From NCBI RefSeq assembly GCF_044324785.1, contig NZ_CP172127.1: DNA of 64,000 nt; one strand, 5' to 3'. A program made the translations under genes and the position numbers. Positions 1-58,575 of this stretch are shown piece after piece (position 1 is the stretch's first letter; each line of letters opens with the position of its first letter). Below the pieces are notes generated by a model. The model made no database searches. It worked only from the letters and a program-made list of their open reading frames with translations, and was not told the DNA's origin. Origin of the DNA: Escherichia coli. GTDB lineage: Bacteria; Pseudomonadota; Gammaproteobacteria; Enterobacterales; Enterobacteriaceae.

Positions 1-1
1 C

Positions 2-1129
2 ATTCAGACGGAACGTATTACAGCCGGAGCTTATGATTACATACTGAAACGTGGTCAGGGGATTAACAGCACTAACTGGTATCTGATTAGCAGAAAAGAC
101 ATTCCTGTACCACAACCTGAAGCTGTACCGGAAAGCCATGATAATAATTTGCGTCCTGAGGCAGGTAGCTATGTTGCCAGTATTGCTGCTGCAAATAATC
201 TGTTTGTAACGAATCTGTATGAACGACAGGGACAGGAGTTGTATATCAGCCACATGACAGGAGAAGAAAATGAAGCAGGTATCTGGATGTATAATAAAGG
301 AAAACATAATCGCTGGCGTGACAACAGTAGTCAGCTGAGAACCCGGGGGAATAGCTACGTTGTGTTAATAGGGGGAGATATAGCTCAGTGGAGCCTGAAT
401 GGTACCGATCGCTGGCATACAGGTATGATGGCTGGCTATGGTCATAATAATAACAGTACGAATGCCCTGAGCACCGGATACCATTCGGAAGGAAGAATGA
501 ATGGATACACAGCGGGTCTTTATGCAACATGGTATGCCAATGATGAAACACACAATGGTTCTTATCTTGATAGCTGGCTGCAATACAGCTGGTTTGATAA
601 TCATATAAATGGAGAACGGCTGCCTGCTGAGTCATGGAAGTCAAAAGGGTTTACGGTATCTCTGGAAGCAGGATATTCATGGAAGGCTGGAGAGTTTACC
701 GACAATTACAAGGGAAGTCATGAATGGTATGTTCAGCCGCAGCTTCAGGTTGTCCGGATGAATGTAAAATCAGACAAATATCATGAAAGTAACGGAACCA
801 GTATTGAAAATACCGGTAACGGAAATATTCTCACCCGCCTGGGAGCAAGAACATGGCTTACCAGCAAAAACGGTAAAAATACGCGGTATGCGGTTCCGTT
901 CAGACCATTTGTGGAGGCACACTGGTTGCACAATAGTCGTGTTTTCGGCACCAGTATGAATGGTGTAAGTATATACCAGGATGGTGCGCGTGATATCGGA
1001 GAAATAAATGGTGGTGTTGTGGGAATGATAACACCAGAAGTAGCATTCCGGGCTGATGCAGGCATTCAACTTGGAGAACATGGATACCATAATACATCTG
1101 CCATGTTGAGTGTGGAATATCGTTTCTGA
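2..1129 (+). CDS. Autotransporter outer-membrane beta-barrel (translocator) domain protein, C-terminal portion; 5' end outside window
   Basis: Reading frame open from nt 2 to stop at 1129 with no stop codon; Gly/Tyr/Trp/Asn-rich alternating composition and terminal aromatic motif ...SVEYRF typical of autotransporter beta-domains; family by recall. Confidence 0.6.
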   Translation: MQTERITAGAYDYILKRGQGINSTNWYLISRKDIPVPQPEAVPESHDNNLRPEAGSYVASIAAANNLFVTNLYERQGQELYISHMTGEENEAGIWMYNKGKHNRWRDNSSQLRTRGNSYVVLIGGDIAQWSLNGTDRWHTGMMAGYGHNNNSTNALSTGYHSEGRMNGYTAGLYATWYANDETHNGSYLDSWLQYSWFDNHINGERLPAESWKSKGFTVSLEAGYSWKAGEFTDNYKGSHEWYVQPQLQVVRMNVKSDKYHESNGTSIENTGNGNILTRLGARTWLTSKNGKNTRYAVPFRPFVEAHWLHNSRVFGTSMNGVSIYQDGARDIGEINGGVVGMITPEVAFRADAGIQLGEHGYHNTSAMLSVEYRF

Positions 1130-1150
1130 TGTGTCGGTAATGACTCCAAC

Positions 1151-1654
1151 TTATTGATAGTGTTTTATGTTCAGATAATGCCCGATGACTTTGTCATGCA
1201 GCTCCACCGATTTTGAGAACGACAGCGACTTCCGTCCCAGCCGTGCCAGGTGCTGCCTCAGATTCAGGTTATGCCGCTCAATTCGCTGCGTATATCGCTT
1301 GCTGATTACGTGCAGCTTTCCCTTCAGGCGGGATTCATACAGCGGCCAGCCATCCGTCATCCATATCACCACGTCAAAGGGTGACAGCAGGCTCATAAGA
1401 CGCCCCAGCGTCGCCATAGTGCGTTCACCGAATACGTGCGCAACAACCGTCTTCCGGAGCCTGTCATACGCGTAAAACAGCCAGCGCTGGCGCGATTTAG
1501 CCCCGACATAGCCCCACTGTTCGTCCATTTCCGCGCAGACGATGACGTCACTGCCCGGCTGTATGCGCGAGGTTACCGACTGCGGCCTGAGTTTTTTAAG
1601 TGACGTAAAATCGTGTTGAGGCCAACGCCCATAATGCGGGCTGTTGCCCGGCAT
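1151..1654 (-). CDS. insB: IS1 transposase InsB frame
   Basis: ORF-track protein ...[46 protein letters not shown] matches IS1 InsB by recall; normally expressed as InsAB' by frameshift. Confidence 0.85.
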
Positions 1655-1848
1655 CCAACGCCATTCATGGCCATATCAATGATTTTCTGGTGCGTACCGG
1701 GTTGAGAAGCGGTGTAAGTGAACTGCAGTTGCCATGTTTTACGGCAGTGAGAGCAGAGATAGCGCTGATGTCCGGCGGTGCTTTTGCCGTTACGCACCAC
1801 CCCGTCAGTAGCTGAACAGGAGGGACAGCTGATAGAAACAGAAGCCAC
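1573..1848 (-). CDS. insA: IS1 InsA
   Basis: 91-aa protein [43 protein letters not shown]... (zinc-finger, HTH) matches IS1 InsA by recall. Confidence 0.85.
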
Positions 1849-2320
1849 TGGAGCACCTCAAAAACACCATCATACACTAAATCAGTAAGTTGGCAGCATC
1901 ACCCGTTCATTTTCTGAGCCTGTAAAACATGTGGTGATATAGTCTGAGAGCATAAAAGTTGAGATTCTGTGTATCAAGTCCTGTCTTGGCACCGAATGAA
2001 TATTGCTTACGAAGCCCCTTCATGCTTTCCTTGAGAACAATAATTTTATCTTTATGTGAATCTCATTTTTTATAATGATGTCAGATGATTGAAATGCTAA
2101 ATTATATCTGAATCAACTTTTCCTTTGCTAAAGGTATAGAAATAACTGCAAGGCTGTATTTTGTAATTGCCAATTTAAAAATGTCAATTTGTTTTTAATT
2201 ATGTTTTTGTAATAAGTTTGAAGACACAAAAAATAATATAATAACAAAAATCCTCCAGCCTTGTAGGCCAGAGGATAAAATACTTAATTGAGGAAAACAT
2301 CAGGGAAAAGTATTTCTGAC

Positions 2321-3505
2321 TTAACTTTCCCGGCTGGAGAGTGAATCAATGTAATCAGCGTACCATTGCATCATTTCACGGCGGCCATCGAGATACAGGG
2401 CATGATTATAGGTACCCCTGATGGAATTTTTATCCACATGAGCTAACTGCATTTCAATCCAGGCAGAATTAAAGCCCTGTTCGTGCAGAATGGTACTCAT
2501 GGTGTGACGAAAACCATGACCGGTTGCCCTGCCATCGTAACCGATACGTTTGAGCACCATATTGATGCTGGCTTCGCTCATTGGCTTGTTGATATCACAA
2601 CGTCCCGGAAAAACCAGCCGGTATTGCCCGGAGAAAGTTTTGAGCTGCAGCAGAATGTCAGTGGCCTGTCGTGACAGTGGTACGACATGTTTACGTCGCA
2701 TTTTCATGCGGCTTTCAGGGATTGTCCACAGTGCATTATCAAAATCAATTTCTGACCATTCAGCGGACCGTAGCTCAATGGTTCTGAGACCTGTCAGAAG
2801 CAGCAGATTTGTCGCCATGCGGGTAACAGGACTGCCATGATACTCAGCGAGCTTCCGGAGAAAAACAGGGAGCTCATCTGCTCTCAGGTGGGGGAAATGT
2901 GCAGCTTTTGGCGCCGCCAGCGTACTGGTCAGTTCAGATGCCGGATTGACAGTGGCTCGTCCGGTGGCGATGGCATAACGAAAAATCTGATTACAGTATT
3001 GACGCACCTTACGAAGTTTTTCCAGCGAGCCACGTTTTTCTATGCGGCGCAGAATTTCCAGCATTTCCAGCGGGAGGATATCCGTAACGCTTCGTTTGCC
3101 CAGATACGGGAAAATATCTTTATCCAGCGCTTCCAGTACGCTTCTGGCGTAACTTTCAGACCATGACAAAGATTTATGCTGGTGCCATTCCGTAGCGAGG
3201 GCATGGAACGTATTGGTGGCAGAGATTTTCTGAGTGAGTTTTTCCTTTCGCTTCTTTTCGCCCGGGTCACCACCTTCGGAGATGATTTTTCGGGCATCGT
3301 CGCGTTTGATTCTGGCCTCAGCAAGGGAGACGTCGGGATAGACGCCGAGGGCCAGTTTTTTCTCTTTTCCTGCTATCCGGTATTTAAGCCGCCAGTAGCG
3401 GGCACCCGTGGTTTTTACCAGCAGATATAAACCACGTTCGTCAGAGAGTTTATAGTCTTTTTCTTTAGGTCTGGCTGTTTCGACCTGTCTGGCTGTAAGT
3501 GCCAT
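2321..3505 (-). CDS. Tyrosine recombinase, P4-type phage/island integrase
   Basis: N-terminus MALTARQVETARPKEKDYKLSDERGLYLLV typical of P4-like integrases; C-terminal catalytic region with HGFRHT...R...Y; start set at ATG 3505 (MALTAR), not the longer track ORF; lies 177 bp from a tRNA-Phe 3' fragment. Confidence 0.85.
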   Translation of the reverse strand: MALTARQVETARPKEKDYKLSDERGLYLLVKTTGARYWRLKYRIAGKEKKLALGVYPDVSLAEARIKRDDARKIISEGGDPGEKKRKEKLTQKISATNTFHALATEWHQHKSLSWSESYARSVLEALDKDIFPYLGKRSVTDILPLEMLEILRRIEKRGSLEKLRKVRQYCNQIFRYAIATGRATVNPASELTSTLAAPKAAHFPHLRADELPVFLRKLAEYHGSPVTRMATNLLLLTGLRTIELRSAEWSEIDFDNALWTIPESRMKMRRKHVVPLSRQATDILLQLKTFSGQYRLVFPGRCDINKPMSEASINMVLKRIGYDGRATGHGFRHTMSTILHEQGFNSAWIEMQLAHVDKNSIRGTYNHALYLDGRREMMQWYADYIDSLSSRES

Positions 3506-3569
3506 ATGGGGGCTCCTGAAACTGACTGAACACAATGAGCCCCCACCGGGGCCCCCAATGAACGCTTGA

Positions 3570-3665
3570 TTGAGAGAGAGTTCAGTAGAGTCTGGTGGAG
3601 TTCAGAATGTTCAGATTGCTTGTAACGATGTGATTATACTTGAGTTTCGTGGAGTTCGGGAGATG
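3570..3665. promoter_or_regulatory. Cluster of short GGAGTTC(A/G)G direct repeats between integrase and tRNA-derived core; candidate arm-type integrase binding sites
   Basis: gagagttcag, tggagttcag, tgttcaga, tggagttcggg within ~100 bp; interpretation is inference. Confidence 0.3.
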
Positions 3666-3681
3666 AATCTGGAAGTGAAAG

Positions 3682-3734
3682 TGGTGCCCGGACTCGGAAT
3701 CGAACCAAGGACACGGGGATTTTCAATCCCCGTG
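3682..3734 (-). repeat. 3' fragment of tRNA-Phe (anticodon stem to CCA) = attachment-site direct repeat / island junction
   Basis: Reverse complement reads GGGGATTGAAAATCCCCGTGTCCTTGGTTCGATTCCGAGTCCGGGCACCA, identical to the 3' ~49 nt of E. coli tRNA-Phe (recall); the 5' half of the tRNA is absent, so not a functional tRNA gene. Confidence 0.75.
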
Positions 3735-3782
3735 CCATAATTGGCTGTGTCAGTTGGTTACACACCATTGAGGTGTGTACTA

Positions 3783-4661
3783 ATGAAAATACTGCCCGTT
3801 GTCTCCACAAAAGGTGGCGAAGGTAAATCAACACAATCCGCAAACCTGGCTGGTTTTCTCGCCGATGCAGGTATCCGTACCCTGCTGATTGACGGAGATC
3901 ATGCTCAGCCCACGGCAAGCAACATCTTTCCGCTGACATATGAAGCGTCAGCCGGTCTTTTTGAGTTGCTGATGCGCACGGCTGACCTCAGTCATCCCGA
4001 TAACATCATTTCCCGCACGGCTATCGACGGACTCGATCTGATAGTCTCCAATGACCCTCATGAGCAGTTAAAAACTGCGATGCTTCACGCCCCGGATGGT
4101 CGTCTGCGCCTCCGGAATGTCCTGCAGCATCCGCTTTTTCTGAACAACTACGATGTCATTGTAGTTGATTCTCAGGGAGCACGTTCTGTCATGCTCGAAA
4201 TGATTATGCTGTCGGCCACTGATTCGGTTGTCGGGATGGTCAATCCGGTACTCCCTGATGTGCGCGAGTTTATTCGGGGCACTGTCAATGTTATGGAGAA
4301 CCTGCTGCCTTACCGGGAGCTGGGGATACCCCTGCCGAAAGTACGCACGCTGGTTAACTGCATGGATTATACGGCACTGGCCAGGAAGACGCTGGATGAG
4401 CTGGCCGGAATTATTCAGACCGGTCGTTACAGCAGACAGTTACCTGAAGGTGCGGTTTCCCTTCTTTCCACACAGATTTACGACCTGAATATTTACAAGC
4501 AGGGGCATGCGGCTGGTCAACCCGTACATCGTCTCGAAAAAGAATCCACACGTCGCAGTGATTCCGCGCTTGTCACGATGCACAGCCTGGCCTGTGAACT
4601 CTTTCCTGAGTGGAAACAGGCGTTTGACGGGCTGCTGGCGAACGGGGGAATACGTCAGTGA
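3783..4661 (+). CDS. ParA/Soj-family partition ATPase
   Basis: MKILPVVSTKGGEGKST deviant Walker A (KGGxGKS/T); first gene inside the ICE next to att repeat as in PAPI-1/SPI-7-type elements (recall); start chosen at ATG 3783. Confidence 0.85.
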   Translation: MKILPVVSTKGGEGKSTQSANLAGFLADAGIRTLLIDGDHAQPTASNIFPLTYEASAGLFELLMRTADLSHPDNIISRTAIDGLDLIVSNDPHEQLKTAMLHAPDGRLRLRNVLQHPLFLNNYDVIVVDSQGARSVMLEMIMLSATDSVVGMVNPVLPDVREFIRGTVNVMENLLPYRELGIPLPKVRTLVNCMDYTALARKTLDELAGIIQTGRYSRQLPEGAVSLLSTQIYDLNIYKQGHAAGQPVHRLEKESTRRSDSALVTMHSLACELFPEWKQAFDGLLANGGIRQ

Positions 4662-5527: not shown

Positions 5528-5735
5528 AAGGTATTTCTCTTCGTAAACATGTTGATTATGAGCGCAAATATGCTGTACGTACCTTCTGACCGGGGTCGGC
5601 AAACTTACCGGTCGGAAAATGTACAGACAGTTATGGGCCTTTTATGCCCTGCAACTGTTCGTCCGGCACCCGTTTTCGTTTTTTTGCATGGTGGGTTTGC
5701 TGTGAAACAGGCTCCGTTTGCCCGGGAGGTGGCGT

Positions 5736-7124
5736 ATGTCTGAACGCTATATTCCACGCTCCGTTGATGCAGAGCAGGCCGTGCTGGGCGGCCTGATGCT
5801 CGATAATGAACGCTGGGATGAGGTGGTACTGATGCTCCGGGGGGAGGATTTTTCTCTGGCCGCACACCGGGTGATATTCCGCACCATGTCAGAGCTGGCA
5901 ACCAGCGGTCAGCCGTTCGACCTCATCACGCTGAGTGAGCATATTGAGAAAACAAACAATATTGAGGCACTGGGTGGTTTCGCTTATCTGGCTGAACTCA
6001 GCAAAAATACGCCTTCTGCAGCCAATATTATCGCTTATGCCCGTATTGTTGCTGAAAAGAGCATGCTGCGTCAGTTGCAGGAGACGGGGAATGCGCTGAT
6101 TACGGATGTGGCCGCACCGGATGCGACACCACGCACTGTTCTTGAATCCGCTGAACGTCGGCTCTTTTCACTTTCACAGACTGGCATGTTGCATGAGCGA
6201 TGTGAAGTCAGTCTCACCTCGGCTATGGAGCTGGCGCTGCGTCAACTGGAAGAGGGACTGAACGCCGGCGGGATGACGGGCACGCCCACGGGATTTGATG
6301 AACTGGATAAGATGACCTGTGGTCTGCAGCCCGGCGACCTCATTCTTCTGGCTGCACGCCCGTCTATGGGGAAAACAGCGCTGGGCCTTACCTTCTGTCT
6401 TAATGCCCTGTGTAACCGGACCGATGAAACGGTATTTCTTTTCAGTATCGAAATGTCCCGGGAGCAGCTGATTCTGCGTGTCCTGTCAATGCTCTCCAGG
6501 GTGGAGCTGACACGTCTTCGCAGCAGCATGATGAATGATGAAGAGTGGGCGAGAGTCACGGCAACCATGGGACGCTTCATGAATGAAGCGTCATTCATCG
6601 GAGATGGAAACCGCCTGATAATTGATGACACCTCCTTCCAGACGCCGTCATCGCTGCGTGCCAGCGCCCGTCGTTATGTCCGTCTGTATGGCAGACCTTC
6701 CCTGATAATGGTTGATTACCTCCAGCTGATTCGTTCTCCGGACCAGGAGAACCGAACGCAGGAAATTGCGGAAATATCCCGCGCCCTTAAGGCGTTAGGT
6801 AAAGAGCTGGGATGCCCGGTACTGGCACTGTCTCAGCTTAACCGTCAGGTGGAGCAGCGGGCGGATAAGCGCCCCAATAACGGTGACCTGCGTGATTCCG
6901 GGGCGCTGGAGCAGGATGCTGACCTCATTATGTTTATTTACCGTGATGAGGTTTATAACTCTGGCACGCTGGATAAGGGCGTTGCTGAAATCATTGTGAG
7001 CAAACAGCGGCAGGGGCCAACCGGAACGATACGGGTGAACTTCGACGGCCGCTACACCCTGTTTTCACCGTTTGAACGTGGATGGAATTTTGACCGTGCC
7101 GGAGGAAATGCGTATGTCAATTAA
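5736..7124 (+). CDS. DnaB-like replicative DNA helicase
   Basis: N-terminal DnaB domain (AEQAVLGGLMLDN), Walker A ARPSMGKTALGLTF, Walker B IMVDYLQL; SD GGGAGGTGG before ATG 5736. Confidence 0.9.
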   Translation: MSERYIPRSVDAEQAVLGGLMLDNERWDEVVLMLRGEDFSLAAHRVIFRTMSELATSGQPFDLITLSEHIEKTNNIEALGGFAYLAELSKNTPSAANIIAYARIVAEKSMLRQLQETGNALITDVAAPDATPRTVLESAERRLFSLSQTGMLHERCEVSLTSAMELALRQLEEGLNAGGMTGTPTGFDELDKMTCGLQPGDLILLAARPSMGKTALGLTFCLNALCNRTDETVFLFSIEMSREQLILRVLSMLSRVELTRLRSSMMNDEEWARVTATMGRFMNEASFIGDGNRLIIDDTSFQTPSSLRASARRYVRLYGRPSLIMVDYLQLIRSPDQENRTQEIAEISRALKALGKELGCPVLALSQLNRQVEQRADKRPNNGDLRDSGALEQDADLIMFIYRDEVYNSGTLDKGVAEIIVSKQRQGPTGTIRVNFDGRYTLFSPFERGWNFDRAGGNAYVN

Positions 7125-8766
7125 ACGAAATCATTCCGTTGATCTGGGAGCTGCCATCATGCAACCGGGCCGTCAGGCCAGCACGACGGGTAACGTGGTG
7201 GCGCTGGGGGAAACACCGATGATTCTGACGCTGGATCAACTGCGCCCCAACCCGGATAACCCGAGGACCACGCGTAATCCCCGGTACGACGATATTAAAA
7301 GTTCAATTTTCTCCCGTGGACTGGATACGGTGCCCAAAGTCACCCGGATACCTGAGAGTGAGCCGGATATCTATATTTTCAGCGATGGTGGTAACACGCG
7401 ATATCAGATCCTGAAAGAGCTGTGGGAGGAGACCGGCGATCAGCGTTTCTATCGTATTCATGTGCTTTTCAAGCCATGGCCGGGACGGCTTCAGTGCGTC
7501 ATTGGTCACCTGGCTGAGAATGAAGTCAGGGGCGAACTGACGTTTATTGAAAAGGCCCGGGGTATCCATAACGCCCGGATGATTTATGAGGAGTCGATGC
7601 AGCGAACCGTGACGATCAGGGAACTGGCGTCACTGCTGACGGATGAAGGACTTCCGGTAAGCCACTCATCTGTCAGCAGGATGGAGCATACTCTGAAATA
7701 TCTGTATCCGTGGATCCCCGATCTTCTGGAATCAGGATTAGGAAGACCGCAGATCAATTCACTGTTGTCTCTCCGGCAGGATGCGGAACGCATCTGGGGA
7801 CAGTTTGCGGTGGCAACAGAGAACGGGGCGGATTTTGACCGCGTGTTTGGTGAATGCTGCAGCAAATTCAATTCACCGGAGCTCTGGTCACTGGAGATGT
7901 TCCGGGATGAGCTGATTGGTGATCTGCTGAAAGCGTTACCACATCCGGTGCTGGATTATGACCGCTGGTTGCTTGAACTGGATCCGCGGGAGCGTAACCG
8001 ACGTCACCATTTTGGCGAACCTGAGCCGGTGCTCATTCCCGCAGACAGTGATGCGATGCCAGAGCCTGCGACTGACGGTGTGTCGGCAGTGACGGCGGAG
8101 AAGAACAGCGGAAGGGAGCAGTCTGTGATTTCCGCACCGGCTGACCATGACACCGTCATGAATACGGAGCAATCCCCGGCTGGAAAGGCGGAGAGTTCAG
8201 TTATCGAACAACGCGAAGAACGCCGTAGAAAGGAAGTCCAGCCGGATATGTATGGTGGTGAAGAAACATACAGCGGCGATTACGAAGAGGATGGCGATAC
8301 CCGTGATGCTGCGGATCTGCCGGTAACGTCACCGGAAGAGGGGGCTCAGCAGAGCAGCGGTGAAATATTCAGTGAGCCGGTATTCAGTGTTGGTGAACTG
8401 GATGATATCGAATATCTGCAGAATGAGGCATTTCACCTGGCATGGGAGCTGGCGTCACACACAGGCTGTGTCGATGAGCTGGCTATGGACAGGGAAAGCG
8501 AACTGTCTGCGGGATTCGGCGCGGCAGAGGCGAATTGTTCTCCGGTCATGGCATTTCTTGTCAGACTGACCGGTGAGGAGGTTCTGCGGGTCAATCCGGT
8601 TTCCCTTGATGCACTGCTGATAGGCGGCAGTACTGAAGAAGACCTGCCGTTGCTTGATGATGAACATGCAGGAAAGTTGCTTCGCCTGCTGGGTGTGTTG
8701 CGTCGTCTGCGGGGGCTGCAGCGTATGGTGGAAGACGAGAGTGAGGAAGGGCGCGATGAATGCTGA
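7114..8766 (+). CDS. ParB-like nuclease-domain protein with acidic C-terminal region
   Basis: N-terminal ParB/Srx-like domain (LTLDQLRPNPDNPR...); SD GGAGGAA before ATG 7114; overlaps dnaB-like stop by 11 nt. Confidence 0.8.
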   Translation: MSIKRNHSVDLGAAIMQPGRQASTTGNVVALGETPMILTLDQLRPNPDNPRTTRNPRYDDIKSSIFSRGLDTVPKVTRIPESEPDIYIFSDGGNTRYQILKELWEETGDQRFYRIHVLFKPWPGRLQCVIGHLAENEVRGELTFIEKARGIHNARMIYEESMQRTVTIRELASLLTDEGLPVSHSSVSRMEHTLKYLYPWIPDLLESGLGRPQINSLLSLRQDAERIWGQFAVATENGADFDRVFGECCSKFNSPELWSLEMFRDELIGDLLKALPHPVLDYDRWLLELDPRERNRRHHFGEPEPVLIPADSDAMPEPATDGVSAVTAEKNSGREQSVISAPADHDTVMNTEQSPAGKAESSVIEQREERRRKEVQPDMYGGEETYSGDYEEDGDTRDAADLPVTSPEEGAQQSSGEIFSEPVFSVGELDDIEYLQNEAFHLAWELASHTGCVDELAMDRESELSAGFGAAEANCSPVMAFLVRLTGEEVLRVNPVSLDALLIGGSTEEDLPLLDDEHAGKLLRLLGVLRRLRGLQRMVEDESEEGRDEC

Positions 8767-14008: not shown

Positions 14009-14836
14009 TCTATGGCGCTACTGGCACCATAGTACAAAAAATGAGCGATGGTGCCACTGACACCACGGTATAAAAAATGAGCGATGGTGACGCTGGCACC
14101 ATAGTACAAAAAATAAGCGATGGTGCCACTGGCACCATAGTACAAAAAATGAGCGATGGTGCCACTGGCACCACGGTATAAAAAATGAGCGATGGTGCCA
14201 CTGGCACCACGGTACAAAAAATAAGCGATGGTGCCACTGGCACCACGGTATAAAAAATGAGCGATGGTGCCACTGGCACCACGGTACAAAAAATAAGCGA
14301 TGGTGCCACTGGCACCACGGTACAAAAAATAAGCGATGGTGCCACTGGCACCACGGTACAAAAAACGAACGATGGTGCCACTGGCACCATAGTACAAAAA
14401 ATAAGCGATGGTGCCACTGGCACCACGGTACAAAAAATAAGCGATGGTGCCACTGGCACCACGGTACAAAAAACGAACGATGGTGCCACTGGCACCATAG
14501 TACAAAAAATAAGCGATGGTGCCACTGGCACCATAGTACAAAAAATAAGCGATGGTGCCACTGGCACCACGGTACAAAAAATAAGCGATGGTGCCACTGG
14601 CACCATAGTACAAAAAATGAGCGATGGTGCCACTGGCACCACGGTATAAAAAATGAGCGATGGTGCCACTGGCACCACGGTACAAAAAATAAGCGATGGT
14701 GCCACTGGCACCATAGTACAAAAAATGAGCGATGGTGCCACTGGCACCACGGTATAAAAAATGAGCGATGGTGACGCTGGCACCATAGTACAAAAAATAA
14801 GCGATGGTGCCACTGGCACCATAGTATAAAAACGAA
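14009..14836. repeat. Tandem array of ~22-23 copies of a 36-bp unit, each containing a 17-19-bp palindrome (A)TGGTGCCACTGGCACCA(T) plus an A-rich spacer
   Basis: Directly visible periodicity of 36 bp across ~830 bp with minor unit variants (cggtac/tagtac, ataa/atga/acgaa, gtgacgctg). Confidence 0.95.
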
Positions 14837-17940: not shown

Positions 17941-18270
17941 TGGCAGGGCTAACTTGTCGCTCCGGCGACCACCAATGTTCCATAGTGGCCTGTGAGGAAC
18001 GCCTTCGGGTGGCCCATGTCGCTTCAGCGACCACCAATGTTCCATGTGGCCTGTGAGGAACGCCTTCGGGTGGCCCACGTCGCTCCGGCGACCACCAATG
18101 CTTCATCTGACCTGTGAGGAGCGCCTTCGGGTGGTCAGTTTTACACCTCCTGAGCCTGAAAGGAGCTGTGCGTACTGAAGGGATATATTCCCGGAAGTAC
18201 GGGCAAATCTGCACACCTTTGAGAGCAGATGTCACTGCGGTTTTCCGTGATGATGAAGGCTTTTTTTACT
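17941..18270 (+). repeat. Structured ~320-bp element, copy 1 of 3 (three ~61-bp tandem units plus hairpin-rich tail)
   Basis: Unit gtcgctccggcgaccaccaatgttccatgtggcctgtgaggaacgccttcgggtggcccac x3, then tail with CTCCT/AGGAG, GTACT/AGTAC, ATCTGC/GCAGAT stems; near-identical at 46163 and 48465. Confidence 0.85.
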
Positions 18271-46162: not shown

Positions 46163-46478
46163 AACTGTCGCTTCGGCGACCACCAATGTTCCATGAGGCC
46201 TGTGAGGAACGCCTTCGGGTGGCCCATGTCGCTCCGGCGACCACCAATGTTCCATGTGGCCTGTGAGGAACGCCTTCGGGTGGCCCACGTCGCTCCGGCG
46301 ACCACCAATGCTCCATCTGACCAGTGAGGAGCGCCTTCGGGTGGTCAGTTTTACACCTCCGTAGCCTGAAAGGAGCTGTGCGTGCTGATGGGATATGTTT
46401 CCGGAAGTACGGGTAAATCTGCACACCTTTGCGAGCAGATGTCACCACGGTTTACGTGATGATGAAGGCATTCCGGAT
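46163..46478 (+). repeat. Structured ~320-bp element, copy 2 of 3
   Basis: Same three-unit plus hairpin-tail organisation as 17941-18270, with a few substitutions. Confidence 0.85.
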
Positions 46479-48464: not shown

Positions 48465-48775
48465 ACTTGTCGCTTCGGCGACCACCAATGTTCCATGTGG
48501 CCTGTGAGGAACGCCTTCGGGTGGCCCATGTCGCTCCGGCGACCACCAATGTTCCATGTGGCCTGTGAGGAACGCCTTCGGGTGGCCCACGTCGCTCCGG
48601 CGACCACCAATGCTTCATCTGACCTGTGAGGAGCGCCTTCGGGTGGTCAGTTTTACACCTCCTGAGCCTGAAAGGAGCTGTGCGTACTGAAGGGATATGT
48701 TTCCGGAAGTACGGGCAAATCTGCACACCTTTGAGAGCAGATGTCACTGCGGTTTTCCGTGATGATGAAGGCTTT
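48465..48775 (+). repeat. Structured ~320-bp element, copy 3 of 3
   Basis: Near-identical to copy 1. Confidence 0.85.
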
Positions 48776-53412: not shown

Positions 53413-56328
53413 TTACTGAGTCAGTTTTTTTATCAGGTCGTGAATTTTATCACCTGAAAACTGGGTCATGAAAGTTATCTTTATGGATTTACTGATTTGT
53501 TCGAAGAGTTTCTGTGCATGTTTTATTTTATCGCGTTCTTCATGTCTGAGTTCACGTTTGCCATCAACATTTTTGGTTTCAATAATAAGGTTCAGATAAT
53601 CACCCTTTGACGTGTTTACAACATAAGCGAAGTCAGGGGAGTAAGTGTATCCTCCCGCTACAGGAATTTTTATTGAATTTTTGGGGATCTTTGTGAAGAC
53701 AATGACTGACCTGACCTCACCCTCTGTCATATTGAGTTTTTCAAGTTCTGAATCATAAAATACTTCTTCAAAAAGATAAGAGTCCAGTGGAGGGCTTGTA
53801 TTATCCTGTAAAACGCCAAGATCACTTGACAATACATCAGCAAGATAACCGCCGTCTGCATTGGTGAATTTCGTGGGATGGACAGTTCCTGATATTACAT
53901 TATACCCAAGGCTGAATTTACTGAACGAGTTATTAAGCAAATACTTGCTGAAACCAGATTTAATTTTTCTGATTGTCTGAATGTTAAGGTATTCAGTTAT
54001 ATTTATGATGTCTTTTATATCACAAAAAACCTTATGCATGGTGTCATGTTTGACAAAAATAGTCTGTGATAATTTATCAAGGAATTCACGATAGCTCATT
54101 GTGTTTATTTTGTGAAAATTATCCTCATCAACACTGAGAATGCTTTTCGACATTGCCGTATCATTATGGATATAAATTCTTTCAATACGAGTATGAGCAC
54201 CGGATTTGGTAAATCTGTCTGCTTCTTCCAGCATAAACGCTCTGAAAAGGGATAAAAACTCACGTTCACTTTTTATTTTATACTCAATCACGACCTTTTG
54301 ATTGATCAAGTCCCATAGTTCTTTCAGCTCACTGAACTTACCAACACGCATTTTAGTGCGTCTTTTTCCATCAGAGGCTTTTTTTATTTTGCCTGGTTTC
54401 ACTCCTGCAGGAAATGCTGCCGGATATCTGGCTTTTAAGCGGCTATAGGCATCTGAATCTTTGAAGTTATCATTATCATCAATGATCTCATCACCAAAAA
54501 TTTCATTCAAGAGTGTTCTGGAGGAAAGCTCCGGATATTGAGACAGGATTTTATCCTTAAGCTCCTGAGTAAACTTACCTGGAACAGTCTCTTTGAAAGA
54601 ACTATCGTTGATCTCTTTGACAAGAGAATCGACAAAATCTTTTTCTGTAAAATCAACATAATAGTTGAGGGTAAAATTGCGGTCTTTCACACGACACATG
54701 TATTCATTCACCGGAAGACGTAAACCACGCCCTACTTCCTGAAGTTTAGATGTGGTGCTACCGCTCGAACGGAGCTTACAAATCTGAAAGACATTTGGGT
54801 TATCCCATCCCTCACGCAACGTCCATTTAGAGAAAATGAAACGGCGAGGATTTTCTAAAGACAATAGAAGCTCTTTATCATGAAGGATTTCGTTGATTTC
54901 CTGCTCAATTTTATCATCTTTATCACTATTATCTTTTGAAAAATAACCACCATGAACAGAAGATATATCCTTAACAGTTTTTTCAAGGTAGTTTCTGTAA
55001 AACTCATCTTTTTCTGTTTTTAACAGTTCATTTGCTTCTGCCAAAACGTATTCTTCGAACTTAGTTTTCAGGCTTCCTGCAATATCATTACCATCACGAT
55101 AGCCTTCAATGTCATCAATGAAGAAAAGAGTAAGAGGTTTTATGCGTGGCCTTTGTGTCAGATACTCTTTTTCTAACTTAAAGTGTTCTTTGACAGCTTT
55201 ACGTATCATGTTATCAGCAAGTGTCTGATCGTAAGAATAGGGGTTTATCGAACTACCAATTTTTAGCTCAATACCATTACTCAACACTGCTGTATTCTTA
55301 TTTAAAGCATCAAGAGTTAAATCATGGATCGCACTATGCGTCTTAGATAGTGATTCACCTTTGGCTAACTTAAAAATTTTTTTATTATTATTTTCGTTCA
55401 GTTCAAATGTAGCTTCTTTTCCGTCAGATTTGACCAACTTGAGGTTGGCATTACCATCACCAACTATATCCTCAATGTATGCATCAATACCTTTAACAAG
55501 ATCTTCATTGAAGGCATCTACGGCTGTAAGACGATAAACTAAGTTCTTATAGCCTTCACTAAAGGTTGCACCATAGCGGATGATATATTGGGCATTAAAT
55601 TTTTGAATATGTTCCCATGTCTTTTTACCAGTAGGAAATTTATGAGGCTCATCAATGATAATGAATGGTTTTATCGCACTAAGTGCAGAAAATGGGGTAT
55701 CAAACTGATTATTAAGCAAGCCAACATCATAAGTGTCAGTTAAAGACTTAGAGTTAATCATCCCTGAATTGATCACAAGAATGTGTATATATTTCTTATT
55801 GAAATTACTTGCTTCAACAAAATCATGGATAGCTTGAGGTATATACGATTTTGTATTTTTACCCGAACGTTTCTGACTTTCAACAACGTAAGTCTTTAGT
55901 TCACGCTCGTAATCATCTCGAAAGTGTTCTTTTATAGCATCGCTTTTTAAAAAGTTAACGGTTCCGGCTTTGATCGATAGGGTAGGAACAATGATGATAA
56001 ACTTGTTAATACCAAATGATTTGTTCAGGTCAAAAATTGTTTTGGTGTAAGTATAAGTTTTACCTGTACCTGTCTCCATAGAAACATCAATTACGTTGCT
56101 TTTAGCATCGTAATTATCTTTTGAGTGCTCAATACCATTGAACTCCTGAACATTTTTTATGTTGTTGTAGTATTGTTGTTCAGATAGATTCAGTTCTGGA
56201 TTAGCTAACAGGCGAATTGCAACATGATCCGTCTGATGAGGTATGGCGGATACAAAGACATTCATTACCGAATCAACGCCAGCCTTTTGATGAGGTAAAT
56301 TTTTTTCGAATGTGAACCCTTTAGACAT
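53413..56328 (-). CDS. res: Type III restriction enzyme Res subunit
   Basis: 971 aa; helicase Walker A METGTGKTYT, DEAH-like IIIDEPH, motif VI QEVGRGLRL, C-terminal PD-(D/E)xK; low GC; immediately downstream of mod. Confidence 0.85.
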   Translation of the reverse strand: MSKGFTFEKNLPHQKAGVDSVMNVFVSAIPHQTDHVAIRLLANPELNLSEQQYYNNIKNVQEFNGIEHSKDNYDAKSNVIDVSMETGTGKTYTYTKTIFDLNKSFGINKFIIIVPTLSIKAGTVNFLKSDAIKEHFRDDYERELKTYVVESQKRSGKNTKSYIPQAIHDFVEASNFNKKYIHILVINSGMINSKSLTDTYDVGLLNNQFDTPFSALSAIKPFIIIDEPHKFPTGKKTWEHIQKFNAQYIIRYGATFSEGYKNLVYRLTAVDAFNEDLVKGIDAYIEDIVGDGNANLKLVKSDGKEATFELNENNNKKIFKLAKGESLSKTHSAIHDLTLDALNKNTAVLSNGIELKIGSSINPYSYDQTLADNMIRKAVKEHFKLEKEYLTQRPRIKPLTLFFIDDIEGYRDGNDIAGSLKTKFEEYVLAEANELLKTEKDEFYRNYLEKTVKDISSVHGGYFSKDNSDKDDKIEQEINEILHDKELLLSLENPRRFIFSKWTLREGWDNPNVFQICKLRSSGSTTSKLQEVGRGLRLPVNEYMCRVKDRNFTLNYYVDFTEKDFVDSLVKEINDSSFKETVPGKFTQELKDKILSQYPELSSRTLLNEIFGDEIIDDNDNFKDSDAYSRLKARYPAAFPAGVKPGKIKKASDGKRRTKMRVGKFSELKELWDLINQKVVIEYKIKSEREFLSLFRAFMLEEADRFTKSGAHTRIERIYIHNDTAMSKSILSVDEDNFHKINTMSYREFLDKLSQTIFVKHDTMHKVFCDIKDIINITEYLNIQTIRKIKSGFSKYLLNNSFSKFSLGYNVISGTVHPTKFTNADGGYLADVLSSDLGVLQDNTSPPLDSYLFEEVFYDSELEKLNMTEGEVRSVIVFTKIPKNSIKIPVAGGYTYSPDFAYVVNTSKGDYLNLIIETKNVDGKRELRHEERDKIKHAQKLFEQISKSIKITFMTQFSGDKIHDLIKKLTQ

Positions 56329-56330
56329 GA

Positions 56331-58367
56331 TTAGTTCCTTACCACCAAATCTAAATCAATAGATTTTTTATTAGCATAACTTTTTAGTGCTTCATTGAGT
56401 TCCATCTGTTTCGCACTTTCGAAGTTGCTGCCATAAAATACAACTTTGTTAGGGGCAAAGTCTTTGTCTGCATCCAGCTTTTGAAGTAAAGCTTTCAAAG
56501 CCTCACTTGTGAAATTAGGCGCAATTAGATATAGCCGACCATCGCACAAGTGTGCTTTGTAGCCATTAAGGTCAATATCTTCAATTGGTGTTGTTAGCAA
56601 GCTGCCATCATACACGCACCATGTCGTCAATAGAGTGTCATACTGCTCTGGTGTCAATACAGCATCGTCAAAGAAACTAAGATTAGAAAGCGTAAGTTCA
56701 GACTCATCTTTCACTCGAAAATCATGAACTGTTTCAAATATTTTAAATCCCAAATCTCCATTATAATTAGGATTATCTTTTTTCAGCTTTTTTCCTGCCT
56801 TAATAATTCTGTCTTTTGTTATATTGAAGATGGATTTATACCCTTCTTTATAGGCTTGTTTCTTTTTATCTGTTTCTTCATCTAATTGAACACAGATGAA
56901 GTTTCTTTTCCTGCCGTCTTCAATATTTAACTCCAGAATACCATGAGCTGTAGTTCCAGAGCCAGCAAAAAAGTCAAGATAAATGTCTTTATCTTCGGTT
57001 TTTACTGAACCAAATAGTGTTTTTATTAAACTTGTTGGCTTCGGGTAGGAGAAATATCCTTTCCCACCAAAAAGATTTTCAACCTCAACACCACCATCAC
57101 TTTTAGTTGAAATAATTGATCTTAGTAAAAACTCTTCAACTTCATCTAAAAATTTAACCGAACTGGGTTGGGTGTTTTCTGTACTGGCAAACCAAATTCC
57201 ACCACAAATAACGCTACCATCATGTAGTTTTTTGATATCTGCATACTTTCCATCTATTCTTTTTGCAATATGATTAAAAGTGCCTTCTTTCCAACGCCAG
57301 CCTCTGTCTGGGATTTTGACAGGGTTATTAGTCAAAGGGTGCAATACTTCATACGTGGGTCCAAATGAATCTGCATTAGGCCAGCTCATATTAATTTTAC
57401 CCCATGGCCTATAATCTTCGTTCAAACAGTTGTAAAGAGTAATTCCACGATCATATCCGTTGGAGCTGTAGAATTTTTTGAGTTGCTGCTCTGCTTTATC
57501 TAATGGCACCTTCTCCTTTTTTAACTTTTCAATAAACTGATATACATCATCAATACCATCTTTCCGCATTAAAAATTCTTTACTTATTTCGTTATTCTTC
57601 GCATAAGCAAGGATGTACTCATGGATATTACCAATACCCTTATCATTTTTAGGGATACGTTTATTCCATACAATATTTTCTATGAAATTTGCTTCGCCAA
57701 AAATTTCATCACAAATAGTTTTAAGTTGATTTAATTCATTTTCGTCAATCGAAATAAATATCACACCATCTTCACGTAGAAGCTCACGAGCAATATATAA
57801 ACGAGGATAAATGAACGTTAACCATGCGCTATGGCTGCTTGAACCATTCGTGGTAAATTCAAGTATACGTTTAGCCTCATCAAGATCGATACCTGCCAGA
57901 TCAGAAAGCTGTTCAGGTGTAAACTTGCGATCATCGTTATAGGCGAATCCATCCTTACCTGTATTGTATGGTGGATCAATGTAAATCATCTTCACCTTTT
58001 CAGAGTAAGCATTAACCATATGCTTCAATACTTCGAGGTTATCCCCTTTGATTAACAGATTCTGACTGTTTTTGTTCTCTTCACGTTGGTTATGGTCTTT
58101 ATCTTCGGAGAGTAATGTCTTCGGCGGCAAGTTAGCTAACAGACGGGCATAGGATTTACCAAGCCAGTTCAGGCTGTATGATTCTTTGGAGAGTTCAACA
58201 TCCGATGATTTGACGATTTCAAGCAATTTTTCCTGAATGAACGCTCCATTTTTATCAAAACACTGTGGAAAGTTAGCCTTTAAAATCGCAAGCTGTTTAC
58301 TGTTTGTGGTTTCAGTTTCAGAGAAAAGAGTTTCTTTTTTCAGTTGAAATTGGGGTTGTGTATTCAT
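56331..58367 (-). CDS. mod: Type III N6-adenine DNA methyltransferase Mod subunit
   Basis: Motif IV DPPY (MIYIDPPYNTG) preceding motif I FFAGSGTT (beta-class order); SD GGAGGTG 5 nt before ATG 58367; mod-res order. Confidence 0.85.
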   Translation of the reverse strand: MNTQPQFQLKKETLFSETETTNSKQLAILKANFPQCFDKNGAFIQEKLLEIVKSSDVELSKESYSLNWLGKSYARLLANLPPKTLLSEDKDHNQREENKNSQNLLIKGDNLEVLKHMVNAYSEKVKMIYIDPPYNTGKDGFAYNDDRKFTPEQLSDLAGIDLDEAKRILEFTTNGSSSHSAWLTFIYPRLYIARELLREDGVIFISIDENELNQLKTICDEIFGEANFIENIVWNKRIPKNDKGIGNIHEYILAYAKNNEISKEFLMRKDGIDDVYQFIEKLKKEKVPLDKAEQQLKKFYSSNGYDRGITLYNCLNEDYRPWGKINMSWPNADSFGPTYEVLHPLTNNPVKIPDRGWRWKEGTFNHIAKRIDGKYADIKKLHDGSVICGGIWFASTENTQPSSVKFLDEVEEFLLRSIISTKSDGGVEVENLFGGKGYFSYPKPTSLIKTLFGSVKTEDKDIYLDFFAGSGTTAHGILELNIEDGRKRNFICVQLDEETDKKKQAYKEGYKSIFNITKDRIIKAGKKLKKDNPNYNGDLGFKIFETVHDFRVKDESELTLSNLSFFDDAVLTPEQYDTLLTTWCVYDGSLLTTPIEDIDLNGYKAHLCDGRLYLIAPNFTSEALKALLQKLDADKDFAPNKVVFYGSNFESAKQMELNEALKSYANKKSIDLDLVVRN

Positions 58368-58425
58368 AACGCACCTCCAGAATGCACGGAGGTACTTGAC
58401 GCGGAATTTTTATACAGGCATATTG

Positions 58426-58575
58426 TTGCGTTGCGTTGCGTTGCGTTGCGTTGCGTTGCGTTGCGTTGCGTTGCGTTGCGTTGCGTTGCGTTGCGTTGCG
58501 TTGCGTTGCGTTGCGTTGCGTTGCGTTGCGTTGCGTTGCGTTGCGTTGCGTTGCGTTGCGTTGCGTTGCGTTGCG
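58426..58575. repeat. Perfect pentanucleotide repeat (TTGCG)x30; (CGCAA)x30 on the mod-sense strand
   Basis: 150 bp of uninterrupted 5-nt periodicity, 58 bp upstream of mod ATG, preceded on the sense strand by ATG-AAA with SD GAGG. Confidence 0.95.

Follow-up and report, generated by a model that had tools for sequence, protein, structure and literature searches.

The stretch of Escherichia coli DNA analysed here (64,000 nucleotides, hereafter the window) contains, from left to right, the end of an autotransporter gene, an IS1 element, a P4-family integrase gene, a fragment of a tRNA-Phe gene and the greater part of an integrating conjugative element (ICE). The fragment (3682-3731, minus strand) comprises the last 50 nt of the tRNA, namely the anticodon stem-loop, the variable loop, the T-arm, the 3' strand of the acceptor stem and the CCA end, and it is identical at 50 of 50 positions to the intact pheV and pheU genes of ten ICE-free loci (L006-L015). 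It is adjoined on one side by parA, the first gene of the ICE, and on the other side by the integrase gene, which points away from it. The open reading frames confirm these flanks, and the original prediction was right to recognise an ICE boundary at a tRNA-Phe 3' fragment that is devoid of its 5' half. The extent given there, 49 nt over 3682-3734, needs correction: the match is indeed to the tRNA-Phe 3' end, but it spans 50 nt at 3682-3731, while nucleotides 3732-3734 (GTG) lie outside the tRNA match and are part of the ICE side.

ARAGORN made no tRNA call over the whole window, the full 76-mer of tRNA-Phe was absent from it with up to three mismatches allowed, and no cloverleaf fold was obtained for 3682-3731. 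A search of the junction region (2321-3734) against Rfam likewise found no RNA family. The 27-mer and the 23-mer of the tRNA-Phe 3' half occur once each in the window, with none expected from shuffled sequences. No second copy of about the last 23 nt of the tRNA, the repeat that would mark the far end of the island, was found in the window at up to three mismatches; the island to which the integrase belongs runs off the left edge. The 'tRNA-Ser' annotated between int and parA in VTB96937v and other genomes was rejected, being a PGAP call placed over the fragment and the ICE end, where ARAGORN calls nothing.

Together with the GTG on the ICE side, the anticodon stem makes up a perfect 10-nt inverted repeat, CACGGGGATT-GAA-AATCCCCGTG (3712-3734, unstranded). 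This dyad is the presumed core-type site of the ICE integrase, which would bind and cross over here. Because the T-arm differences described below segregate 3' of the 22-mer GGGGATTGAAAATCCCCGTGTC in the tRNA alignments, the ICE crossover can be placed inside this 22-mer. The fragment doubles as the attR site of the ICE and as the tRNA part of the attL site of the neighbouring integrase island.

The integrase gene (2321-3505, minus strand), identified from the list of open reading frames and Pfam, is intact, represents the phe-type allele and encodes 394 amino acids followed by a stop codon. It is located on the same strand as the tRNA fragment and reads away from it. The exact protein matches Arm-DNA-bind_3 (PF13356), Phage_int_M (PF22022) and Phage_integrase (PF00589) in Pfam and has the three-domain layout of the P4 family, with N-terminal arm-binding, central and C-terminal catalytic domains. 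Its match to NCBIfam NF007246 (PRK09692) has an E-value of 3e-92 and 309 bits, a score under the curated cut-off of 434, and IntS-type integrases of HK620, HK633 and Sf6-like phages share 46-47% identity with it across 98% of its length. The same protein was found in 452 blocks of the collection, and in ten of the ten places listed it is adjoined by an intact pheV or pheU gene.

The start of the integrase gene at 3505 lies 176 nt from the CCA end at 3682, both on the minus strand, which places the gene directly 3' of the tRNA in the style of the GI-pheV and GI-pheU islands. The 176-nt spacer between them (3506-3681, minus strand) forms the int-proximal arm of the island attL and is presumed to contain the int promoter; a promoter scan of 3400-3900 found no sigma-70 consensus promoter. 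Short GGAGTTC(A/G)G repeats had been pointed out at this place. Exactly two copies are present (3597 and 3651), and they are clustered, but with 0.86 expected window-wide their count by itself is not significant. The local clustering is nevertheless real, since the shorter motif GAGTTCRG occurs three times within 82 nt (3578, 3598 and 3652) versus ten times in the whole 64 kb, and since a 16-nt direct repeat (GAGTCTGGTGGAGTTC / GAGTTTCGTGGAGTTC) occupies 3588-3603 and 3642-3657. The block GAACTC(C/A)ACCAGACTC recurs upstream of the integrase of E19035, which is just 43% identical. By analogy with the precedents of IntS and P4 (PMC2951348, PMC7286903), the GAGTTCRG repeats may be arm-type or autoregulatory sites for the P4-family integrase.

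The ICE (3732-64000, plus strand) is a member of the ICEEc2/SPI-7/pKLC102-PAGI-2 family and exits the window at its right edge, so that about 60.3 kb of an element of about 78 kb are covered. Positions 3676-64000 are collinear with the ICE of the relative E19035 at 99.68-99.96% identity. The first gene, parA (3783-4661, plus strand), is located 51 nt from the att core, and its product belongs to the ParA family (WP_000698645.1 in E19035 and in a second relative, CM2), with Pfam matches to CbiA/ParA/AAA_31. It is part of a parA-dnaB-parB module at the tRNA-distal end of the ICE (ORFs 3783-4661, 5718-7124 and 7072-8766), and PGAP annotates the three products in the 99.7% identical E19035 copy as ParA, 'SPI-7-type island replicative DNA helicase' and ParB. 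The gene order of the ICE is parA, dnaB-PI, parB, the STY4528/STY4534 replication genes, topoisomerase III and ssb, followed by MPF-G type IV secretion genes, traD, ArdA, type III R-M and traF. The PGAP annotation of the E19035 ICE includes proteins of the STY4528 and STY4534 families and TIGR037xx 'integrating conjugative element' proteins; MPF-G genes (TIGR037xx / PFL_46xx), TraD and TraG are annotated in the segment corresponding to window positions 14252-58577, which is 99.93% identical.

The far ends of the ICE and of the island were taken from E19035 and CM2, the window covering neither the intact tRNA gene nor the distal repeat. The far end in E19035 comprises dsbD-dicD, an intact tRNA-Phe gene (pheU), a 366-aa XerC/D-like integrase, TraI and the pil operon. 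The intact pheU lies 17.9 kb past the point equivalent to the right edge of the window, and the ICE measures about 78.2 kb from core to core. The int-phe'-parA junction of the window is found again in CM2, at 99.1% identity, and the far end of the CM2 ICE adjoins speC-yqgA with an intact tRNA-Phe gene, which is pheV. The XerC/D-like ICE integrase stands beside the intact tRNA gene in E19035, CM2 and ten other assemblies. Both of the repeats of about 50 nt that flank the ICE are seen in E19035 and CM2, and the window covers one of them (3682-3731). The E19035 array, pheU*-ICE-phe'-PAI-phe''-cadC, displays all three att repeats. These relatives bear out two further claims made for the locus, that an intact tRNA-Phe gene lies beyond the right edge and that two tandem elements are present, each with its own integrase.

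The element resembles ICEEc2 of the APEC strain BEN374, which was reportedly described by Roche et al. in 2010 as a member of the pKLC102/PAGI-2 family located downstream of a phe tRNA gene. The likeness, which is one of description and not of sequence, concerns the parA-dnaB-parB module at one end, the MPF-G genes, the type IV pilus, and the XerC/D-like integrase and TraI relaxase at the tRNA end; the two may differ in cargo, which here includes type III R-M with a GTTGC repeat and ArdA. The likeness to SPI-7 of Salmonella Typhi is reflected in the PGAP names 'SPI-7-type', 'STY4528 family' and 'STY4534 family' in the E19035 ICE. ICEs of the ICEEc2 type use both pheV and pheU (PMC11537424, PMC13127887). 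Such ICEs, assigned by the authors through citation of Roche 2010, were located at pheV/pheU in 20 of 133 experimental hybrids; they have also been placed singly in E. coli MG1655 donor strains, and their excision and conjugative transfer have been reported (PMC13127887).

The two halves of the interrupted tRNA gene differ in their T-arms. Five assemblies (E19035, CM2, L037, L039 and L040) have GTGTCGGTGGTTCGATTCCGCCTCC in the intact tRNA gene that adjoins the ICE integrase, and GTGTCCTTGGTTCGATTCCGAGTCC is present in all 15 fragments at parA ends and in all ten ICE-free intact genes. The four changes of the variant T-arm, which has GGTGG/CCGCC where the native one has CTTGG/CCGAG, amount to two compensatory base pairs; the cloverleaf fold is kept, and ARAGORN still calls tRNA-Phe. 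In Marinobacter, Alcanivorax, Xenorhabdus and others, the tRNA-Phe gene natively has this variant 3' half. The canonical T-arm was found in the intact tRNA of 7 of 11 assemblies sampled via the ICE integrase. Because the intact gene carries the foreign T-arm and the fragment the native one (E19035, CM2), the ICE probably brought a new 3' half, and the native half was displaced together with the resident island. The original prediction had taken the fragment for the regenerated repeat; it would instead be the displaced native 3' half, and the ICE-borne T-arm sits in the intact gene. By itself the asymmetry tells which half is native and not which element came first: an identical junction would result if a P4-type integrase used the last ~23 nt of the fragment.

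In a survey set of 5,426 complete genomes, the int allele was found in about 530, mostly beside an annotated intact tRNA-Phe gene and with no ICE, and the int-phe'-parA junction of the ICE was present in seven of these int carriers. The sequence 3' of the CCA in the window (beginning with CTTTCACTTCCAG) equals that behind intact pheV or pheU in nine of the ten ICE-free loci; at L014 the first three bases after the CCA differ from the window. An ICE 99.7-99.96% identical to that of the window adjoins cadC, kps or three unrelated integrase islands and occupies pheU or pheV, and configurations with the ICE only, the island only or both all exist in the population. Since the near-identical ICE occupies two different tRNA genes and has no fewer than three unrelated neighbours, it can be regarded as the recent mover. 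GI-pheV, for its part, co-evolves with the chromosome, its types tracking the chromosome phylogeny and intP4 being its sole conserved gene (PMC11537424). Probably, the island was resident first and the ICE came second. This reverses the order originally proposed, in which the integrase island later used the repeat as its attachment site, an order that is less parsimonious given the prevalence of int beside an intact tRNA-Phe gene with no ICE and the rarity of the ICE junction. We estimate the probability at about 0.8 that the junction in the window represents an ICEEc2/SPI-7-type ICE in a tRNA-Phe gene that already had an island behind it, which is an already well-known structure.

The left part of the window begins with the 3' end of an AIDA-type autotransporter gene (1-1129, plus strand), which encodes the beta-barrel part of a protein of 1165 aa in full; almost every other genome that has this gene carries it as selC-island cargo. 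It is followed by an IS1A element of 768 bp (1136-1903, minus strand), identified from its sequence, its open reading frames and the PGAP annotation of an identical copy in L004, and by the spacer downstream of int (1904-2320, unstranded), which is common to selC- and phe-type islands. The IS1 removes the start of the TPR gene usually located behind this spacer. A 9-bp target-site duplication is absent around IS1A (tgatgtgtc versus cgttcattt), and the element therefore marks a rearrangement joint. The int 3' end and the segment downstream of it are about 99% identical between the selC and phe island families. The window has selC-type alleles at 2138 and 2154 (seven of seven selC loci versus none of nine phe loci) and phe-type alleles at ten sites in 2465-2522. 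The crossover interval (2155-2464, unstranded), with selC-type sequence to its left and phe-type sequence to its right, extends over 310 nt, including the 3' end of int, in which the two types of island are identical.

The resident island thus appears to be a recombinant that combines a phe-type integrase with selC-type sequence left of about 2464, where the IS1, the autotransporter gene and the alleles at positions 2138 and 2154 lie; homologous recombination in the 3' end of int and the segment downstream joined the two parts. The integrase, IS1 and autotransporter had been regarded as one element, a view that does not hold, since, apart from this locus, the selC integrase is the only one behind which the cargo left of about 2464 occurs. 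The complete arrangement of integrase, IS1 and autotransporter (window 1-3700) was found in none of the 5,426 complete genomes, nor did it turn up among the places listed for the exact autotransporter and ParA proteins; L001, L002 and L014 are further, independent mosaics whose breakpoints fall in this 3' region of int. The idea of a hybrid integrase with a selC-type C-terminus and a phe-type N-terminus, which might have marked an inversion between selC and pheU, was dropped, as the exact protein is common at intact pheV and pheU genes and as both island families have in common a module made up of the 3' end of int, the spacer behind it and the TPR gene. What survives of it is the crossover at the DNA level in 2155-2464, drawn from the two diagnostic SNPs and the IS1 joint; for this an inversion is unneeded. 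When the selC integrase was joined to phe-type downstream sequence in a synthetic query, matches were obtained in 565 genomes, but this layout is native to selC islands and so provides no signal of a reciprocal product.

The proposed course of events would start from an intact chromosomal tRNA-Phe gene, either pheV or pheU, with both of which the window is compatible. The resident island would have been located directly behind this gene in the common GI-pheV/GI-pheU layout, in which the tRNA is followed by about 176 nt containing the attL arm and the int promoter and then by int on the same strand. An ICE of the ICEEc2/SPI-7 family would then have integrated via its own XerC/D-like tyrosine recombinase, with the crossover inside the anticodon stem-loop segment defined above. 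The 3' half carried by attP would have completed a functional tRNA gene beside the ICE integrase, about 18 kb past the right edge of the window, and the native 3' half would have been pushed, together with the resident island, some 78 kb away (about 80 kb) to the parA end. Precise excision of the ICE would restore the ordinary tRNA-int junction.

The opposite order of arrival, in which the ICE entered a naive tRNA-Phe gene and the integrase island later used the fragment at the distal ICE end as attB, is consistent with several observations. Tandem arrays can arise in this way, as a second element may use either of the restored cores (PMC7192596), and the fragment retains the last ~23 nt, which constitute the repeat of GI-pheV islands (PMC11537424). 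The intact gene of the ICE strains differs from this core at two positions, so that the fragment could be the better target, and ICE-only configurations exist, for example with the parA end beside cadC. However, the island lacks transfer genes in its visible part and shows decay and mosaicism, with an IS1 lacking a target duplication and with recombinant cargo, and the int-tRNA junction is widespread in genomes devoid of any ICE. Together with the near-identity of the ICE beside unrelated neighbours at two tRNA genes and the agreement of GI-pheV types with the chromosome phylogeny (PMC11537424), this makes a later arrival of the island unlikely.

The local picture would be similar if the P4-family integrase were the ICE's own and the int-att-parA arrangement were a circular attP junction or the join of tandem ICE copies, as the integrase end and the parA end of a circularised ICE also flank attP. 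This reading is contradicted, and hardly credible, in view of the different, XerC/D-like integrase at the other end of the ICE in the twelve assemblies mentioned above, of the hundreds of genomes in which the P4-family integrase is present without an ICE, of the parA ends that are found without this integrase, and of a synthetic attP query, which yielded no contiguous match and no plasmid copy in the 5,426 genomes. It is also very improbable that the int-phe'-parA join or the int/IS1/autotransporter join is an assembly chimera formed across a repeat. Such a chimera could account for the uniqueness of the left-hand arrangement (1-3700) among the complete genomes, and the 310-nt stretch identical in both island types would offer a site for it, but the int-phe'-parA junction recurs in seven independent complete genomes and natural mosaics are broken in the same region of int. 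Moreover, the window crosses the multicopy IS1, which is rare in short-read contigs and suggests a long-read or finished assembly.

For an ICE preceded by a resident island, the significance of the locus is small beyond correct annotation. The partial tRNA beside the island integrase is to be annotated as the displaced native half and not as a pseudogene or as the 'tRNA-Ser' of PGAP, and the boundaries of both the ICE and the island belong at the anticodon-loop core. The intact gene's foreign T-arm marks the ICE-derived half and indicates a history of the ICE outside E. coli. A conjugative element able to drive Hfr-like chromosomal transfer adjoins a virulence-type island in E. coli of the avian-pathogenic type, which bears on the spread of such islands. 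The ICE and the integrase island might even behave as one composite. Recombination between the intact tRNA gene and the distal repeat of the island would excise both elements jointly ('accretion-mobilisation'), or Hfr-like transfer, recently shown for ICEs at pheV/pheU, would carry the virulence island to recipients at high frequency. The mosaic of phe-type integrase and selC-type cargo would then have arisen through exchange driven by the ICE or through an inversion between selC and phe around oriC. We consider this composite behaviour quite doubtful.

The integrase island is similar to GI-pheV and GI-pheU in having a P4-family integrase gene directly 3' of tRNA-Phe and on the same strand, with the exact protein found at both genes; these islands have modular, IS-bounded cargo, int being the one conserved gene (PMC11537424). 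It differs from them in that the tRNA is reduced to a 50-nt remnant with the ICE wedged in, and in that the cargo on the int side is the selC-island version. In tandem att arrays, including those of SXT/R391, the accretion of ICESt1 and tRNA tandems, two elements with their own integrases likewise share one tRNA target with a partial tRNA repeat between them, and recombination within or between such arrays yields hybrids (PMC7192596, PMC5812530). Unlike in those arrays, the two integrases here belong to different families and act on different parts of the tRNA gene, that of the ICE on the anticodon stem-loop, with a 50-nt repeat, and that of the island on approximately the last 22-23 nt (E19035 array; PMC11537424).

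A 50-nt 3' fragment of a tRNA-Phe gene lies on the minus strand of the window at positions 3682-3731, where TGGTGCCCGGACTCGGAATCGAACCAAGGACACGGGGATTTTCAATCCCC gives, in reverse complement, the final 50 nt of E. coli tRNA-Phe; these begin with the 5' strand of the anticodon stem and run to the CCA. Ten ICE-free assemblies have an intact pheV or pheU gene identical to the fragment at all 50 positions. The fragment was originally predicted as 49 nt at 3682-3734; its presence stands, while its length is 50 nt and its end is at 3731, the GTG at 3732-3734 being outside the tRNA match. ARAGORN called no tRNA in the entire window, so the 5' half is missing; the full tRNA-Phe 76-mer had no match in the window with up to three mismatches allowed, and the fragment does not form a cloverleaf fold. 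Each of two probes from the tRNA-Phe 3' half, a 27-mer and a 23-mer, hits a single position of the window (zero expected), which therefore holds no second tRNA-Phe repeat. In several genomes PGAP places a 'tRNA-Ser' across this junction, a spurious call where ARAGORN finds none. The 78-nt feature, seen in strain VTB96937v (L002, 9362-9439) and other RefSeq genomes and labelled 'tRNA-OTHER' in E24377A, covers the fragment plus the ICE end and looks like an annotation artefact.

On one side of the fragment is parA, the first ICE gene (plus strand, start at 3783), and on the other, downstream of the CCA end, a 394-aa integrase ORF running from 3505 to 2321 on the same strand as the fragment and directed away from it, as originally described. 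A tRNA gene followed by the integrase gene is the standard layout of islands with P4-family integrases. The protein contains the Arm-DNA-bind_3, Phage_int_M and Phage_integrase domains, matches the PRK09692 model with E = 3e-92, which is under the curated cut-off of that model, and shares 46-47% of its residues with IntS-type integrases from HK620-like phages; on these sequence grounds it is classed as a P4-family integrase. The exact protein occurs in 452 blocks of the public collection, and in 10 of 10 places among the matches listed it lies, with no ICE, directly behind an intact tRNA-Phe gene, either pheV (speC-yqgA) or pheU (dsbD-yjdC). This allele together with its upstream spacer is present in 530 of 5,426 complete E. 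coli genomes, in most cases next to an annotated tRNA-Phe; the parA end of the ICE adjoins it in only 7.

To the right of the fragment, the chromosome of the APEC strain E19035 is collinear with window positions 3676-64000 at 99.68-99.96% identity. Its copy is annotated with ParA, an 'SPI-7-type island replicative DNA helicase', ParB, replication proteins of the STY4528 and STY4534 families, topoisomerase III, Ssb, the full TIGR037xx/PFL_46xx 'integrating conjugative element' set, TraD, TraG, TraF, ArdA and a type III restriction-modification system. The element belongs to the ICEEc2/SPI-7/pKLC102-PAGI-2 family of ICEs. In E19035 it runs 17.9 kb past the point equivalent to the right edge of the window, through a shufflon recombinase, a type IV pilus operon, a UvrD-like helicase, the TraI relaxase and a 366-aa XerC/D-like tyrosine recombinase, the ICE integrase. 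The element stops at an intact tRNA-Phe with dsbD-dicD ahead of it, the pheU locus; from core to core it measures about 78.2 kb. The closest relative thus supports the expectation of an intact tRNA-Phe beyond the right edge.

The two ends of the ICE in E19035 differ in the T-arm. The intact pheU beside the ICE integrase reads ...GTGTCGGTGGTTCGATTCCGCCTCCGGGCACCA, and the fragment at the parA end, like that of the window, reads ...GTGTCCTTGGTTCGATTCCGAGTCCGGGCACCA; the four differences form two compensatory base pairs in the T-stem. The variant is still called as tRNA-Phe by ARAGORN and retains the cloverleaf fold. Across all loci fetched, it was confined to intact genes beside the ICE integrase (E19035, L037, L039, L040 and strain CM2; positions 26417-26492 of L005 for E19035 pheU and 2978-3053 of L169 for CM2 pheV), being found in 0 of 15 parA-end fragments and 0 of 10 ICE-free intact genes; 7 of 11 ICE-adjacent tRNAs sampled via the ICE integrase have the canonical T-arm. 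This distribution implies that a tRNA 3' half travels with the ICE in its attP and that the crossover lies 5' of the T-arm, within GGGGATTGAAAATCCCCGTGTC. Upon integration the ICE-borne 3' half completes the functional gene and the native half is shifted to the far end, so that the fragment, formerly taken for a 'regenerated' repeat, is the original 3' half of the gene. Because the variant 50-nt 3' half is native to the tRNA-Phe of Marinobacter, Alcanivorax, Marinobacterium, Salinivibrio, Xenorhabdus and other Gammaproteobacteria, it appears to point to a history of the ICE outside E. coli. A perfect 10-nt dyad, CACGGGGATT-GAA-AATCCCCGTG, at 3712-3734 corresponds to the anticodon stem extended on the ICE side. 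Core-type recombinase sites look like such dyads, and this one is a putative core-type site.

If the P4-family integrase were the ICE's own, the junction would be an attP. This was rejected, since the ICE integrase is a different protein at the opposite end of the element and a synthetic attP query returned no contiguous matches and no plasmid copies in 5,426 genomes. The order of arrival was originally proposed as ICE first, with the island later entering the fragment. The T-arm alone is no proof against this order, as an island that integrated later, at the terminal ~23 nt of the fragment, would produce an identical junction. Nevertheless, it is improbable, and the direction of events was most likely the reverse, given that the integrase-tRNA layout is common without the ICE and that a near-identical ICE is found in varied contexts, adjoining cadC, kps capsule genes or three unrelated integrase islands. 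The spacer after the fragment (CTTTCACTTCCAG...) and the integrase are as behind intact pheV or pheU in 9 of 10 ICE-free loci; in the tenth (L014) the first three spacer bases differ. Between the window and E19035, the island integrases share only 43% identity.

In the most economical reading, the island was already in place when the ICE came in. Strain CM2 has a junction like that of the window (99.1% identity), and on the other side its ICE borders an intact tRNA-Phe that has the ICE-type T-arm, along with speC-yqgA; the ICE site thus varies by strain between pheU and pheV. ICEs of a type for which the authors cite Roche et al. 2010 were placed singly in E. coli MG1655 donor strains, and 20 of 133 experimental hybrids had such an ICE integrated at pheV or pheU (PMC13127887). 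GI-pheV types follow the chromosome phylogeny (PMC11537424).

The tandem islands originally proposed were right in outline, and E19035 has the full array with all three tRNA-Phe repeats: intact pheU with the ICE-type T-arm, the ICE of ~78.2 kb, the 50-nt fragment, a pathogenicity island of ~53.5 kb with its own integrase, tia, pap, pgt and ireA, a 22-nt repeat, an integrase remnant and cadC. The distal repeat (L168 4290-4311; record 4743189) comprises the 3'-terminal 22 nt of tRNA-Phe minus one G, and is followed by the same terminator-like flank as the 50-nt fragment, before the remnant and cadC. The unequal repeats, 50 and 22 nt, indicate that the two elements use different sublocations of one tRNA gene. 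There is ample precedent for integrative elements in tandem arrays (PMC7192596, PMC5812530). The structure, an ICEEc2/SPI-7-type ICE and a GI-phe island arranged in tandem, is a textbook case, and several public complete genomes contain its junction.

Between the fragment and the integrase, GGAGTTC(A/G)G occurs twice, which is unremarkable at window scale; GAGTTCRG is present in three copies inside 82 nt against ten across 64 kb, and positions 3588-3603 and 3642-3657 hold the two copies of a 16-nt direct repeat. Upstream of the divergent E19035 island integrase there is likewise a related block, GAACTC(C/A)ACCAGACTC. A consensus scan of the repeat region found no promoter. In P4, KplE1 IntS and PAI I of strain 536, the int promoter lies partly within the attL arm, and the integrase, which binds arm-type sites there, is its own repressor (PMC2951348, PMC7286903). 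By analogy, the GAGTTCRG and 16-nt repeats may be arm-type, autorepression sites of the P4-family integrase.

The integrase island is present as predicted, but it is not a single unit: it is a recombinant of phe-type and selC-type islands. Window positions 1-2464 are identical to islands behind tRNA-Sec (selC) in many genomes, which consist of selC, a 64%-identical integrase, a spacer, IS1 and a gene for a 1165-aa autotransporter. The selC- and phe-type integrases are 64% identical overall and 100% alike in the last 68 residues (window 2321-2524; 8321-8524 of the selC island L004), and both island types share ~400 nt of spacer downstream of the integrase gene and a TPR gene. At 2138 and 2154 the window has the selC-type alleles (7 of 7 selC loci, 0 of 9 phe loci), and at ten sites in 2465-2522 the phe-type alleles, which places the crossover in 2155-2464. 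IS1A (1136-1903) has no 9-bp target-site duplication and therefore marks a rearrangement joint. The identical joint is also present in selC islands, and in some genomes (L017, L022, L023) the IS1-autotransporter module adjoins the fec operon or other DNA. This pattern suggests that IS1 has mediated rearrangement more than once. Complete genomes lacked the arrangement of window 1-3700 (0 of 5,426); its join may have come from exchange with a selC island in the same genome, imported DNA or misassembly. Further breakpoints in the 3' region of the integrase gene in L001, L002 and L014 define a recombination-prone module boundary, in agreement with the modular nature of GI-pheV (PMC11537424), and islands at different tRNA genes appear to recombine preferentially at the 3' end of the gene. 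L014 has selC-type sequence at 2465-2492 inside a phe-type gene.

Within the ICE, the type III R-M methyltransferase gene, placed by transfer from E19035 at about 56246-58282 on the minus strand, lies behind a perfect (GTTGC)x30.6 repeat (58425-58577, ~143 nt upstream of the annotated mod start), whose length differs between the window and E19035; the mod gene is a candidate for phase variation. A 36-nt unit is repeated 22.8 times with 91% match at 14012-14832, within a minus-strand hypothetical ORF (WP_289245789.1 in E19035). The STAXI RNA motif (RF01728) has six matches of 62-69 bits in three ICE loci, 17955-18261, 46166-46461 and 48468-48773, each made of 61-nt tandem units.
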